From NCBI GenBank assembly GCA_044342325.1, contig JBIIPZ010000015.1:1-64000 (forward strand): 64,000 nt of DNA, in the 5' to 3' direction. The position numbers are program-made. Below are positions 21,001 to 27,000 of this stretch, piece after piece (within the stretch, counting starts at the first letter, position 1; every line of letters starts with the position of its first letter). The DNA is from Terrimicrobiaceae bacterium (GTDB lineage: Bacteria; Verrucomicrobiota; Verrucomicrobiia; Chthoniobacterales; Terrimicrobiaceae).

Positions 21001-24000
21001 CGTCAATGAGGTGGCCGAGCACAACATCTCCCATGCCGAATCCGATGGCAGGCAGGTCCACATGGCCGTCGCTGAGGCCTTTGATGAGCCCATCGTAACG
21101 GCCACCGCCCGCCAAGGCGCGGAGGTTTTTGGAGCGGTCGAAAATTTCAAAGACAACTCCGGTGTAATAGGCGAGGCCGCGCACAATCGAGAGATCGGGC
21201 TGCACAAACCCAGTAAGACCACGCGCAGCGAGGGCCTCGAGCACGAGAGCGAAGGCCTCGGGACTGCCACCGGCGATGAAGGCCTTGAGATCGGCAACGC
21301 TGAGACCTGTCGGAGCCAATTTTGCGTTGAGCTTTTCTTCAGGCTCGCGCTCGAGCTTATCCGCACAGGCCAGAGCGATACGGGAAGCAGCTTCGTCGCA
21401 GCCGCGTGATGTCAAAAAATCCATCCAAGCCTTGCGATCGCTCAGGCGCACCACAAAGTTCTCAGCCGTGAAGCCGAACGCCCGCATGAGATCGATCGCC
21501 AAGGCGACGGTTTCGGCATCCGCCTGAGGAGAACTCTCGCCAATAATGTCGGCGTTGAACTGCAAAAACTCGCGCAGGCGTCCCTTCTGCTGCCGCTCGT
21601 GGCGGAAGAAATTTGACACGCAAAACCACTTCATCGGTTTGCGATAGTGCTTCTCGCGGGCGGCAACCATGCGCGCGAGGGTGGGAGTCATTTCCGGCCT
21701 CAAAGCCACCTCGCGGCCACCGCGATCGGTGAACGAATAAAGCTGCTCAAGAATCTCAGCCCCCTCCTCGTTCTTCTTGCGATAGAGGTCCGTGCTTTCG
21801 AGCACAGGGCCGTCAAATTCCACAAACCCGTAGCGCTTCGCCACCTCGCGCCAGGTCGCCACGATGTGGTTACGTCTGGCGCACTCCTCGGGATAAAAAT
21901 CCCTGAAACCCGGCAAGACCTGCATCACGCGACGAACCTCCCTTGAACCGAAATCCTAAAAATCATCGCGGGACTCTGCCTGTTTCAACCCCTCCTGCAA
22001 AGCCGCAAATCAATTCCCACGCGCGACCGCAGGATTTCCCGCAAGCACCACATTCGGCCCTGCATCCCTCATTACCACAGCTCCGGCCGCGCAAACCGTA
22101 TTGCGCCGTAGAGTGACTCCAGGCCCAATAAAGGCTCCGGCCGCGATCCAGCACCCGTCTTCGACGACGATGGGCTTGATCACGAGGTCGAAGGTTTCCT
22201 TTTTGAATTGGTGCGACCCCGTGCAAAGAAACGCCCGCTGCGAAATGCACACATTCGAGCTAATGCTCACGCGGTCGAGGCTCAGAATCATCACCTCCTC
22301 GCCGATCCAGACATGATCGCCGATTTCGAGACGCCAAGGGAAATTGATATTCACCTGCGAGCGAATCACGACACCACGCCCGATTTTGGCTCCGAATACT
22401 CGCAGGACCGCACAGCGAAGGCGGGAGGGCTGGGGAAACCATGGCTCGAAAAAAATCGTCCGCGCAAACCACCACAGCACTTCCTTCCAAAAAGGAACGC
22501 CTCGGGAAAATTCAGGATTCTGGTAACGCGAAAGGTCCACGGAGCATAGATGGGTTCAACGCCAATCAACACCCTCCCCCGACTGCGGGCGATGACAAAA
22601 GCAAAGGCGCTGAAAATTTCCCCTTGACGAAAACCCGAGCCGCCGCCAAATACAAGGCATCTTATCGAGAGTGGCAGAGGGACTGGCCCTGTGAAGCCAC
22701 GGCAACCGCTGAAGTGTGATGCGAAAACATCCCACCCAGGACCAGGTGCCAAATCCAGCTCGGCAAGCGTGAAAACGCTGAACCGGGAAAGATGAGAGGG
22801 ATAGTTGCCAATCCGCAGGTGTCCCGTCACTCGTCCACTCTCGTTGAGGAAAGAAAATTCCGAACATGAGCGAACAACAGACATTCTTTTCGAACCTGAA
22901 ATGCAGGGAGTGCGGTCGACTTTATCCCAAGGAAGCGATTCACATCTGCGAGTTTGATTTCGGCCCCCTTGAAGCCGCCTACGACTACGACCTCATTGCG
23001 AAGCACATTAACCGCGAGGTCATTGCCTCGCGTCCGCAGACGATGTGGCGCTACCGCGAGTTGCTGCCGATCGATGGCGAGCCCACCGTCGGGGCGCAGG
23101 TTGGTTTCACACCGCTCGTCAGGGCCGACCGCCTCGCGAAGCACCTCGGTGTGGAAGAGCTTTATATCAAGAATGACACGGTCAACTACCCCACCCTGTC
23201 ATTCAAAGACCGCGTGGTTTCCGTCGCACTCAGCCGCGCCTGCGAGCTTGGATTCAAAGTCGTCGCCTGCGCCTCCACCGGAAACCTTGCCAACTCGGTG
23301 GCCGCCAATGCCGCAGCCGCCGGCCTCACGAGCTATGTCCTCATCCCCGCGAATCTGGAGAAGAGCAAAATCGTTGGATCGCTTGTTTACGGCACGCAGG
23401 TCATCGGTATCGAAGGCGCCTACGATCAGGTCAATCGCCTATGCTCCGAGATCGCCGGCAAATACGGCTGGGGCTTTGTGAATGTGAACCTCCGACCCTA
23501 CTACGCCGAGGGATCCAAGAGCATGGGCTTCGAAATTGCCGAGCAACTCGGCTGGAAACTCCCACGCCACACCGTCATCCCGATGGCCAGCGGCTCGCTC
23601 CTCACCAAGATCCATAAGGCCTACAAGGAATTTATCAAAATCGGCGTCCTCGACGAGCAACCCTTCTCCGTCCATGGCGCACAGGCCAGCGGATGCTCCC
23701 CGATCTCCGAGGCCAAGAAGAAAAACAGCGACATCGTCAAACCCGTCTCAAAACCGGACACGATTGTGAAATCCCTCGCCATCGGCACTCCGGCAGACGG
23801 CTACTACGCCATCCGCAGCATGAACGAAACCGGTGGCAGTGCCGACGACTGCTCGGATGAGGAAGTGATTCGCGGCATCCGCGACCTCGCCGAATACGCC
23901 GGCATTTTTGCCGAAACTGCTGGAGGCGTCACCGTCGCCTGCGCCCGCAAGCTCGTCGAAAGCGGAAAAATTCCGCGCAACGAGAGCATTGTTCTCTGCA

Positions 24001-27000
24001 TCACCGGCCACGGCCTTAAAACCCAGGAAGCCATCCACGGCCACTGCGGCGAACCCCGTGTCATCAACCCGAGCTTGCGCGAATTCGAAGCCCTCATCGC
24101 CAACGATGAGGCGGTCCTGGAGGGGAGTTTTAAGTCTTAAGTTTGTAAGTTTTAAGATTCACCGACCGAAAAACCGACACCCAAGACAAAAAAATCTCCA
24201 CAACCACCTCAACTTAAAACTTAATCCTTAAAACTTAAAACACCTCACCATGCCCATACAAGTCCGCATCCCAGCCCCGCTCCGCAAGCTCACCAATGAG
24301 CAAGAACTCGTCCCCGCCACCGGCGCGAACATCGGCGAAGTCCTCACAAACCTCAACGCCATCTACCCCGGCCTCTTCGAGCGCATTTGCGACGAGAGCG
24401 GCAATGTTCGCCGCTTCGTGAATATCTTCGTCAACGACGAGGACATCCGCTTCCTGGAAGAAAAAGCCACACCTTTGAAGGAAGGCGACGAGATCAGCAT
24501 CGTTCCTGCCATCGCGGGAGGTTAGTCCTTCGTCCCCTCCATGAAATCCGGTCGCGCAGCGTGCTTCGCAACATACCTCGCGCTCGCGGGCCCTCTACTC
24601 GCGAAGTCCGACAGGGCGAACGATCTCTACCTTGAAAACTGCGCCTCCTGCCATGGGACCAATGCCGATGGCGGCATGGGCGGAAGCCTGTCAGACGGTC
24701 TCTGGAAGCATGGCGGCAGCGATGCGGAGATAGCCCGCAGTATTTCCAAAGGCCTGCCGGATCTCGGCATGCCCGCCTTTCAGCAAAGCCTCTCGCCAGA
24801 ACAAATCCGCTCGCTGGTCGTCTTTCTCAGGGAAAAGGAAAAGACCGCCAAAACTCAGGCCTCGCCACCTCCCCAGCCAAAAAAGGGCTCCGTCAAATCC
24901 CAGGAGCACAGCTACAAAGTCGAAACCGTCATTGATAGCGGTCTGAAAACCCCGTGGAGCCTGGCTTTTCTTCCCGATGGACGCCGTCTCGTAACCGAAC
25001 GCCCGGGTGCACTGCGCATCATCGATGCCGATGGAAACCTTCTTCCCGAGCCGGTCGCAGGAACGCCCCGCGCTGTCGAGTTGGGTCAGGGCGGAATGCT
25101 GGATGTCGCCGTATCCCCAGACTTCGCGCGGGATGGATGGATCTACTTGGCTTTTTCAGATCCGCTTGAGGGTGAGAAAATGCGCGCCATGCTCAAGGTC
25201 GTGCGCGGCCGCATTCGCGATCATGCATGGACTGACGAGGAGGTTATTTTTCAGGCAGCGCCGGATTTTTACACGACTGCCGGACAACATTTCGGCACGC
25301 GAATGGTTTTCGATGGAGGGTATCTCTATTTCATCGTCGGCGAGCGCGGCGGGAAAATGGAAGTGCAAGACATCACCCGCCCGAATGGCAAAATATACCG
25401 TGTTTTTCCAGATGGCAGTATCCCTCAGGACAATCCGTTCGCTACGGACAAAAACGCCATTCCCGGCATTTGGAGCTACGGACATCGGAATCCACAGGGC
25501 CTTGCCATCGACCCACGCGACCATGCCATCTACGCCACCGAGCACGGCCCACGCGGCGGCGACGAGTTCAACCTCATTCGCAAAGGTGCAAATTACGGCT
25601 GGCCGGTCATTTCGCACGGCATGAACTACGACGGATCGCCCCTGACCGGGCTTACGGAGAAGGAGGGCATGGAGCAACCACTCGTGCAGTGGACGCCCTC
25701 GATCGCCGCTTGCGGCCTCGCCTGTTACACGGGCGACAAATTTCCCGGCTGGAAATACGACTTCTTTGCCGGCGGACTTCGTGGCGAGCTTCACCGCATT
25801 CGGGTCCAAGATGGAAAAGTCGTTGCCGATGAGATTCTGCTTTCCGGTCTCGGCCGCATCCGCGATGTGCGCACCGGCCCCGATGGTTTCCTTTACATCG
25901 TTCTCAACCAACCCGACCGCATCGTGCGGTTAGTGCCGGCGGAGTGAAAACGCTGCGCGGAGCCTTCACACTCGTGGAGTTGCTCGTTGTCTTGGCCGTA
26001 ATAGCCATTCTTGCAGCGCTCTCGCTGGGGGGCCTCTCAAAACTTGGAGCCTCCTCCGACCGCTCGAAAGCCATTTCCAACATGCGCCAGATCGGGACAG
26101 GCATCACACTTTTTGCCGCTGACAACGACGGCAAACTCCCCGGCCCGCTCTGGCCCGGCCAGATGGCGCAGTTTGACCCTAACGATCCCATCAAAATGTC
26201 CGAAAGACTGCTGGGCGTTCTAGCTCCGTATCTGGGCATTCCTGTTCCCATATCTGCAAAGGTCGAACCCCTCTTTGTCCCTCCAGCCTACCGCAAGGCA
26301 GTAAGAGCATCGTTTCTCAATTCTGCCCGGACCTATGTGCTCAACATGGCGGTGCCTACCGACAACCAGATTCTCCTTCCTTGGGGCAACTGCGTTCCCA
26401 CTCCCCGCCTTCCTCCCCTGAAGCTCGCCGCCATCCCATCTCAAGCGTGGGGATTCTCCGACGCCGATGCCCTCCATCCCCGAGTTGTTGGTGCCCCCTG
26501 GGCGACAAACACACCTTCGAAGCCCGTCCACACGCCCAAGCGTCTGGCTTGGTTTTTCAATGGATCCGTCGCTCCGGTCGATGACACCGCGCTGGCACTA
26601 CCTTAGACGCCCCTAAAAAAAGGGTGAAAAATTACTTTTCGGTAGCCATCCTCAAATCCTCACCAACATGCAAAATTCCGTTTCACGCAAAGGCATCATC
26701 CTCGCCGGAGGATCCGGCACGCGCCTCTATCCGCTCACCATCGCCGTGAGCAAGCAGCTCATGCCTGTGTATGACAAGCCGATGGTTTACTATCCGCTGT
26801 CCGTTCTCATGCTGGCGGGCATTCGCGAGATTCTGCTTATTTCCACGCCGGAGGATTTGCCGCTCTTCCAGCGGTTGCTGGGTGATGGCAGCCAATTCGG
26901 GATCTCATTGAGCTACGCTGCCCAACCGCGTCCGGAGGGGCTTGCACAGGCCTTCCACATCGGTGCGGACTTTGTGGGGAATGCCCCCTCCGCCCTCGTG

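Follow-up and report, generated by a model that had tools for sequence, protein, structure and literature searches.

A SAM-I riboswitch-controlled operon in Chthoniobacterales as a putative MetM/MetO homocysteine route without Mec

Background

Why would a gene labelled threonine synthase stand, with a small sulfur carrier, behind its genome's only SAM-I riboswitch? The question is raised by an operon (Table 1) in the first 64,000 nucleotides of contig JBIIPZ010000015.1 (hereafter the window) from a Terrimicrobiaceae bacterium of the order Chthoniobacterales (assembly GCA_044342325.1, 86.3% complete). A pathway that could answer it is already known, published for Streptomyces in 2024 and included in GapMind: the Streptomyces albulus route through a carrier thiocarboxylate, with MetM, MetO, MoeZ and Mec (Hasebe et al. 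2024, AEM 90:e01247-24, as summarised in excerpts of PMC13759103, the GapMind paper of 2026, and of PMC12172450). In those excerpts the S. albulus metM has an upstream SAM riboswitch (PMC12172450), its product is UniProt A0A059WBP2 in the GapMind table, Mec is listed as a pathway step, and MetM is described as frequently misannotated as threonine synthase (bioRxiv 10.1101/2024.10.14.618325, PMC13759103). Judged from sequence comparison, the operon is very probably a MetM/MetO homocysteine synthase route for methionine, in a form that does without Mec.

Table 1. Features of the operon and its leader, in window coordinates
Feature	Position	Strand	Basis
SAM-I riboswitch aptamer (RF00162)	22659..22798	+	cmscan 77.3 bits, E 2e-16
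Expression platform, probably translational	22798..22865	+	folding models only
G/C hairpin without U tract	22798-22825	+	folding model
9-nt element, complementary to aptamer 22666-22674	22835-22843	+	folding model
Purine-rich ribosome-binding stretch	22846-22853	+	folding model
metM-type PLP enzyme, ThrC paralogue, 424 aa	22866..24140	+	PF00291, TIGR00260; identities; tree
metO-type sulfur carrier, ThiS/CysO family, 91 aa, terminating directly in Gly-Gly	24250..24525	+	PF02597

Results

A ThrC paralogue that is not the ThrC of its genome

The enzyme passes the thrC model TIGR00260 (276 against a cut-off of 167.1), and its close relatives in a homologous-protein search are labelled threonine synthase wherever they are named. 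The genome nevertheless encodes an ordinary thrC on another contig, flanked by hom and ask, as the initial annotation had proposed when it described a second ThrC-like protein paired with a ThiS-like carrier. The two proteins are only 37% identical. Identity is 52% to a protein of the actinomycete Nonomuraea, whose locus has the same layout of SAM-I riboswitch, enzyme and carrier, and 59% to a Microcystis protein of the family named as MetM homologue in the excerpt of PMC12172450, where the protein studied is given as 51.6% identical to MetM; haloarchaeal plasmid thrC genes reach 32-36%. The MetM/MetO reading gains from these comparisons. Compared with solved structures, the enzyme matches ThrC entries from bacteria best (2zsj, 1uim), and no MetM structure is among these sequence matches.

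Beyond overall identity, the enzyme carries an N-terminal motif, CxxC...CxxD, and 30 alignment columns discriminate 120 MetM-like sequences from 12 ThrC. Among these is a change of Arg to Tyr at position 213: the ThrC active-site segment N-S-x-N-P-x-R-x-E-G-Q-K is altered here, its Arg and Gln being replaced by Tyr213 and Ser217. The replaced Arg is presumably phosphate-binding in ThrC, although our literature search found no paper that names it as such. For the 80 loci from many phyla discussed below, the motif at 210-217 is circular as evidence, those loci having been chosen by the same motif. The tree (FastTree, 72 of 142 sequences) places the enzyme in a clade separate from ThrC; support for the MetM clade that includes Nonomuraea is 0.785, which counts against the MetM/MetO reading. 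Cysteate synthase was considered as a separate candidate and rejected (TIGR03844, 66.8 against a cut-off of 324.9).

Passing TIGR00260 leaves room for a further enzyme of threonine synthesis, or for one that deaminates threonine to supply 2-oxobutyrate as proposed for the Microcystis homologue, with the carrier incidental. Both activities are reported in vitro for that close homologue in the excerpt of PMC12172450, and no IlvA-like enzyme is seen among the four PALP proteins of the window's genome (G050 and G059 also have four PALP matches each; G009 and G024 have only three). A true ThrC in the same genome speaks against a second synthase. The deaminase role was rejected because citramalate synthase, present in 5/5 genomes tested, supplies isoleucine. 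Repression by SAM would hardly be sensible for threonine or isoleucine synthesis, and the linkage to a carrier and the lack of another homocysteine route in three genomes, both described below, further reduce this reading to a very unlikely one.

The sulfur carrier and the choice between cysteine and homocysteine

A carrier ending in Gly-Gly lies behind metM in 41/41 genomes of the order for which the sequence examined held the whole gene and the DNA downstream of it (G001 and G025, whose loci are cut by contig ends, fall outside this count). Further afield, a carrier stands downstream of the metM-like gene in 77/80 loci from many phyla (the best 80 of 589 matching stretches); no Streptomyces is among these 80, and the link of the window's enzyme to S. 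albulus MetM is an indirect one through Nonomuraea and Microcystis, which counts against the MetM/MetO reading. The window's carrier is 51% identical to that of Nonomuraea.

The closest solved chain to the carrier is 3dwg_C (E 2e-20), which we take to be CysO of Mycobacterium tuberculosis, so that a CysM/CysO-like cysteine synthase, joining O-phosphoserine and the carrier, has to be weighed. The carrier of the nematode symbiont Xiphinematobacter is in fact annotated CysO, under cysteine biosynthesis (PMC4607532 supplement), and G009 and G024 are without CysK. The window's genome, however, has both CysE and CysK; the enzyme is ThrC-like and not CysM-like (it reaches 44.8 bits with TIGR01138, whose cut-off is 394); a query with the SerA of this genome gave no match in G009; and no Mec is available to free cysteine from the carrier. 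We give the cysteine synthase reading the slimmest chance of the alternatives, and return to the homocysteine synthase.

Methionine-type regulation

The aptamer scores well above the RF00162 cut-off of 44.4 bits, with model positions 1-108 covered, and it is, as first noted, the only SAM-I match in this genome. In the leader, the 9-nt complement was equalled in 1/200 shuffles, and over 29 loci the longest leader complement averages 6.8, versus 5.0 in shuffled sequence. A terminator scan of the metM leader found no terminator-like site on the + strand, and a promoter scan found no sigma-70-like site. Contigs from RNA libraries, aligned for 4 of 10 runs, give no demonstration of transcription, and their missing coverage of the flanks carries no weight. 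According to the folding models, SAM probably switches the operon off by burying the ribosome-binding site.

Distribution of the operon and of competing routes

Profile searches of the window's genome gave no match to PF04204, TIGR01392 or PF01053, and MoeZ (ThiF plus rhodanese) is present there, as it is in 5/5 relatives tested; the initial annotation holds on both points. Because the genome is only 86.3% complete these absences are weak, and the case therefore rests on its relatives. The counts that follow come from kin, are not independent, and do not amount to a statistical test.

A metM orthologue occurs in 43/61 genomes of the order, which bears out an earlier count of 21/31, and in 7/121 genomes of the phylum; the proposal of a common methionine route thus stands for the order sample and fails for the phylum. 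Under stricter filters, all 40 SAM-I matches in the 61 genomes directly precede a metM orthologue, one per genome, and no match occurs in the 18 genomes without the orthologue. The riboswitch had been noted at 17 of 19 loci, with two 0.9-Mb genomes as the only exceptions; its presence at most loci is upheld (40/43), and the exceptions turn out to include G030 as well. PF01053 (Cys/Met PLP enzyme) is lacking in 27/43 metM genomes versus 1/18 without metM (15 of 21 carriers in the initial count), and full-length MetX occurs in 6/43 versus 9/18. Two genomes of the same genus that lack the orthologue (here G008 and G023) have MetX, as expected from the earlier work. Against the MetM/MetO reading count the 16/43 metM genomes that also have a PF01053 enzyme, and the six with MetX. 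MetA was found in 0/61 genomes, and the DUF39 route in 0/5 tested. In single-contig G034 and G059 and in 100% complete G050, the gene pair and a methionine synthase family match are found with no MetA, MetX, PF01053 or DUF39. A literature search, with most subscription journals outside its reach, found no paper placing MetM in Chthoniobacterales.

A route without Mec, often accompanied by a NIL protein

Mec had been missing from the tables first inspected, and the peptidase was likewise not found in the 61 genomes of the order: the Mec profile gave one weak match, and the best 11 of 32 PF14464 open reading frames were read, by recognition, as RadC (9) and other JAB proteins (2). By the GapMind scheme a step is thus missing here, which counts against the MetM/MetO reading. 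At the level of the locus, Mec is found at 11/19 loci whose carrier has a tail or fusion after Gly-Gly, versus 3/57 without. The absence of Mec from 61 genomes, together with a carrier that has no tail to trim, points to a Mec-free variant.

The NIL profile matches in 32/43 metM genomes versus 0/18 without metM, and some loci in other phyla encode a fusion of NIL and carrier. In the window's genome the small NIL protein is encoded away from the metM operon, an association that the initial annotation had overlooked. NIL is missing in 11/43 metM genomes, including the whole of one family (0/5), and so appears dispensable; its role is probably in regulation and not in catalysis.

With no Mec found in 61 genomes of the order and NIL confined to metM genomes, the same product could be made by other chemistry, from free sulfide or with need of an unrecognised peptidase or of NIL, so that an essential step would be unlike the Streptomyces scheme. 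NIL being dispensable and a tail-less carrier requiring no trimming, we hold such a departure to be highly improbable.

Reduced genomes and nematode symbionts

Two closed 0.9-Mb genomes of the order retain metM, metO and moeZ, the first two of them under purifying selection; thiG is broken in these genomes and moeZ is kept. One conserved MetM residue has returned to the ThrC state, and the symbiont enzyme has Pro at position 351. Neither the riboswitch nor the NIL partner was found in them. Nor was any known methionine synthase, which counts against the MetM/MetO reading; the initial annotation had not recorded this last point. A search for a hidden methionine synthase among 59 open reading frames of G009 (at least 150 aa and without a match in the window's genome) placed 48 in unrelated Pfam families and 11 in none.

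Xiphinematobacter, symbiont of a nematode that is a crop pest, carries the same gene pair in published tables and is reported to keep most essential amino acid steps, methionine excepted (PMC4607532). Since no known methionine synthase was found in the 0.9-Mb nematode endosymbionts of the order, we propose tentatively, and with rather more doubt than belief, that a deregulated, Mec-free MetM/MetO arm may turn aspartate and host sulfur into homocysteine, which would be exported for methylation by the host. Were this true, a methionine pathway would be split between symbiont and animal, the sulfur-insertion half lying in the symbiont, masked by the labels "threonine synthase" and "CysO"; and if the pair supplies homocysteine, the methionine exception of Xiphinematobacter would be an annotation artefact combined with a shared host-symbiont pathway. 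Our literature search, most subscription journals being outside it, found no paper on homocysteine export in Xiphinema, nor one on methionine synthase there.

Discussion

A scheme for the operon

The window's genome has thrB, moeZ, metH, a metF-like gene, metK, sahH, cysE, cysK and sulfate-assimilation genes, several of these labels resting on sequence motifs. With Ask, Hom and ThrB all encoded, O-phosphohomoserine could be supplied. MoeZ would adenylate the C-terminal Gly of the carrier and, with sulfur from its rhodanese domain, convert it to a thiocarboxylate; the moeZ gene is observed, and the chemistry is that of the Streptomyces pathway as the GapMind excerpt summarises it. The PLP enzyme would then expel phosphate and join the thiocarboxylate to the gamma carbon, where a threonine-forming reaction would add water to the beta carbon. 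Since no Mec was found, homocysteine would most simply come free when the carrier thioester is hydrolysed; alternatively, a peptidase of another kind would release it. MetH would then methylate it. SAM would repress the operon, on the folding model probably through occlusion of the ribosome-binding site.

So read, the operon would fill an apparent methionine gap of an abundant soil and freshwater order, in which tools that demand Mec, or that name the enzyme threonine synthase, would score false gaps. The Mec-free form also makes testable how homocysteine leaves the carrier.

Comparison with known systems

With the S. albulus route the operon shares a ThrC-like enzyme with a sulfur carrier, an upstream SAM riboswitch, MoeZ in the genome and a supply of O-phosphohomoserine. 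It differs by phylum, by the lack of Mec in 61 genomes, by the free Gly-Gly end of its carrier, by the NIL protein that accompanies the route and by an N-terminal Cys motif whose fourth residue is Asp. The Nonomuraea pair has the same layout (52% for the enzyme, 51% for the carrier). The Microcystis "ThrC" belongs to the same family (59%) and has the same carrier neighbour; unlike the window's operon, its locus is without a SAM riboswitch, and it is read in the excerpt of PMC12172450 as a moonlighting threonine synthase/deaminase. Like ThrC proper (TIGR00260; 2zsj, 1uim), the enzyme is of fold type II, uses PLP, would act on O-phosphohomoserine and passes the family model; unlike ThrC, it is set apart by 37% identity, its own clade, the 30 discriminating columns, an extra N-terminal Cys-motif region, SAM control and a carrier partner. 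M. tuberculosis has a CysM/CysO/Mec route to cysteine. The operon departs from it in having a ThrC-like instead of a CysM-like enzyme, no Mec and methionine-type regulation, and resembles it in its Gly-Gly CysO-like carrier, its phosphorylated amino-acid substrate and activation by MoeZ.

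The probable methionine operon and its genome

The initial annotation assigned a gene labelled threonine synthase (g00547) and the adjoining ThiS-like carrier gene most likely to the MetM/MetO route to homocysteine, under the only SAM-I riboswitch of the genome. An Rfam search of this genome, G000, confirms a single SAM-I aptamer, directly upstream of g00547 (see table). G000 encodes four PALP-family enzymes, which we take to be CysK, ThrC, TrpB and the window protein. The normal thrC that had been placed elsewhere, in a hom-thrC-ask arrangement, is indeed found on contig C73, flanked by hom and ask, and its product shares 37% identity with the window protein. 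MoeZ (as reported before), ThrB and MetH are all encoded, and searches of G000 for MetA, MetX, the Cys/Met PLP family (PF01053) and the DUF39 family gave no match, the same result as reported before for the first three; G000 is only 86% complete, so its absences, taken alone, are weak proof. The spacer between metM and metO (24141-24249) has short AT-rich repeats, and matches of RNA-library contigs of other origin to 24211-24245, at high depth, suggest a dispersed repeat there.

Features of the window and of related loci
Feature	Location	Strand	Remarks
SAM-I aptamer	22659-22798	+	Rfam, 77.3 bits
PLP enzyme, 424 aa, metM-type	22866-24140	+	starts 67 bases past aptamer
ThiS-family protein, 91 aa, Gly-Gly end, metO-type	24250-24525	+	downstream of 424-aa enzyme
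Small SRP RNA	40142-40236	+	window
tRNA	48972-49044	-	window
Stand-alone NIL-domain gene	G000:C44:36783-37139	-	not in window operon
Type III secretion regulator families (HrpJ-like, TyeA, FliM/N C-terminal)	L175:80-1477, L199:1296-2471		G009 (0.9-Mb genome)

A role as threonine deaminase might be considered for the window protein, as no IlvA-like enzyme was seen among the PALP enzymes of G000 or of the two reduced genomes G009 and G024. Citramalate synthase, however, is present in all five genomes tested (these three, G034 and G050), and isoleucine is probably made through the citramalate route in each.

No terminator-like site was found on the + strand. Twenty-two bases ahead of the start codon lies a 9-base element whose complement is in the 5' part of the aptamer. 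When P1 is imposed on the fold prediction, a weak hairpin takes in the ribosome-binding stretch together with the start codon; the unconstrained prediction pairs the 9-base element with the aptamer and leaves the start codon free. Over a set of 29 loci, complements of this kind reach a mean maximum length of 6.8 bases versus 5.0 in shuffled sequence, several loci having none. These models suggest that the leader may act by translational control. RNA-library contigs from four studies overlap the leader, metM and metO in part, some running from the leader into metM or from metM into the metO spacer; they are no proof of a transcript.

Distribution in Chthoniobacterales

The orthologue occurs, at no less than 67% identity, in 43 of 61 order genomes, which are kin, so that counts among them are not independent. 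The earlier description of the route as common in the order (21 of 31 genomes) stands for this larger sample but does not carry further: only 7 of 121 genomes in a phylum-wide sample have the orthologue, so the route characterises the order and not the phylum as a whole. SAM-I aptamers occur in 40 of the 61 genomes, one apiece, always 5' of the metM orthologue. The two 0.9-Mb genomes, G009 and G024, had been named as the only exceptions; G030 is a third.

PF01053 is missing from 27 of the 43 metM genomes, in keeping with the initial annotation, versus 1 of the 18 others; full-length MetX is found in 6 of 43 versus 9 of 18, and MetA in none of the 61. The two same-genus genomes, G008 and G023, carry MetX in place of the pair, as the initial annotation had it for two genomes. 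In the single-contig genomes G034 and G059 and the 100% complete G050 the pair occurs along with a match to a methionine synthase family, and searches for MetA, MetX, PF01053 and DUF39 found no other route in them. In family f13, four genomes of 1.7-1.9 Mb (G013, G028, G041, G053) have no match to metM, MetX, MetA or the methionine synthase families PF02574 and PF01717, and are probable methionine auxotrophs. Four genomes of family f14 (G014, G029, G042, G054) have PF02574, with no match to metM, MetA or full-length MetX.

The NIL gene of G000 is of the kind found 3' of metO in many relatives; it is unlinked from the operon in G000, G037, G049 and G060. NIL profile matches occur in 32 of 43 metM genomes and none of the 18 without metM. 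Since 11 metM genomes have no NIL protein, it is not required for catalysis everywhere, and a regulatory role would appear likely.

A carrier that ends at Gly-Gly

Excerpts of the 2026 GapMind paper (10.1101/2024.10.14.618325; PMC13759103) give the peptidase Mec as a required step in MetO maturation. The initial annotation saw no Mec homologue, and a profile built from 12 Mec-like proteins of metM loci in other phyla agrees, giving one weak match in the 61 order genomes in a search run without a control set. PF14464 has matches in 29 of the 61, over cut-off in 7; among the best 11 ORFs, nine are RadC-like and two are other JAB proteins. In each of the 41 order genomes in which the carrier is in view, it reads Gly-Gly-stop. 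Among 76 named loci, Mec is present in 11 of 19 whose carrier has a tail or fusion past Gly-Gly, versus 3 of 57 without. The simple reading is that a carrier without a tail requires no trimming. A Mec-like gene is present at all eight fusion loci, with a NIL-like domain fused past Gly-Gly at seven (L072, L074, L081, L082, L084, L086, L088) and an E1-like domain at L096. Three verrucomicrobial loci (L062, L066, L067) have two tandem Gly-Gly carriers 3' of metM.

The pair in reduced genomes

G009 and G024, each a single contig, share their genus with G038 and G050 (2.5-3 Mb). Both keep metM and metO intact (70% and 64-65% identity). Between the two genomes, metM shows dN 0.054 and dS 0.794, metO dN 0.082 and dS 0.859. 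They also retain moeZ, thrB, thrC and sahH. Searches for the SAM-I riboswitch, NIL, PF02574, PF01717 and MetF found none in either, whereas G038 and G050 have all. Each has three PALP enzymes, none of them CysK. G009, read whole, has intact copies of metK and of two cysteine desulfurase-like genes, and queries with cysE, cysD, cysN and sulfite reductase gave no orthologue. The thiG gene is fragmented in G009 and has one stop in G024; retention of MoeZ without a working ThiG fits service to MetO.

Judging by order, size and gene content, G009 and G024 would be organisms of the Xiphinematobacter kind. The PMC7857533 supplement has Xiphinematobacter isolates with two loci named threonine synthase, one adjoining a "sulfur carrier protein CysO", and the DNA printed in that supplement looks by eye like the MetM-like family. 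Supplement rows of PMC4607532 include moeZ, cysO, ahcY and thrC; according to its section 19, most essential amino acid synthesis steps are retained "with the exception of methionine", and PMC7857533 likewise reports methionine genes as apparently missing. Literature searches, over holdings that take in few subscription journals, listed no paper joining MetM/MetO with such symbionts.

The symbiont would form homocysteine by two paths, MetM and SahH. With the off switch lost and homocysteine not methylated in the symbiont, the product would need export, and a host enzyme could complete methionine from it; nematodes such as C. elegans possess methionine synthase. That the symbiont exports homocysteine for the host to finish is a tentative proposal, somewhat more apt to be wrong than right. 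Against it, position 351, Thr in 120 of 120 MetM-like sequences, is Pro in both small genomes (L130, L131), as in 12 of 12 ThrC, and the symbiont may have a methionine synthase of another kind. Of the 30 discriminating columns no other reverts to the ThrC state, the remaining 29 staying MetM-type. The substituted position adjoins a conserved Glu.

Relation to known MetM/MetO systems

Those 30 columns separate the 120 MetM-like sequences from the 12 ThrC, and a tree built from 72 of the 142 sequences groups the window protein with MetM-like loci, apart from true ThrC, with support 0.785 for the clade that takes in Nonomuraea. The best 80 of 589 matches in a scan of named genomes, at 57-92% identity to the window protein, fall in Verrucomicrobiota, Planctomycetota, Nitrospirota, Cyanobacteria, Actinomycetota and others; the carrier adjoins the gene in 77 of these 80. 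Segment 210-217 is a circular criterion for the best 80; the order sample was picked by score, and for it the segment is not circular. The N-terminal Cys motif (22899-22958 in the window) has the form CxxC...CxxD in Verrucomicrobiota and in some Planctomycetota; in most others it is CxxC...CxxC. A third ThrC-like subfamily (L207-L213, from G006, G054, G047, G005, G014, G057 and G020; 30-33% identity) has its own active-site segment and the full Cys motif; its G006 copy adjoins cystathionine synthase-like and lyase-like genes.

The MetM/MetO pathway is already published and in GapMind, and the homologue list of Hasebe et al. 2024 may cover this order; for Ca. Udaeobacter, 10.1101/053942 calls the methionine pathway "nearly complete". 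The interest of the finding rests mostly on the symbiont lead, not on the operon itself. The 11.85-Mb Nonomuraea record (L035, NZ_LT559118.1), filed as a plasmid, looks more like a chromosome, and its pair adjoins groEL. By tblastn its enzyme is 52% identical to the window protein, with a SAM-I riboswitch 5' and a 51% identical Gly-Gly carrier 3'. A Microcystis protein among the best 80 of 589 matches is 59% identical to the window protein; excerpts of PMC12172450 give 51.6% identity between its Microcystis protein and Streptomyces albulus MetM, and a SAM riboswitch on S. albulus metM. Nonomuraea and Microcystis serve as intermediates for the proposed likeness to S. albulus MetM. Together with the tree, the 30 columns and the carrier linkage, these identities bear out the original assignment as the most likely one: the window operon would belong to the known MetM/MetO route, in a form that lacks Mec.
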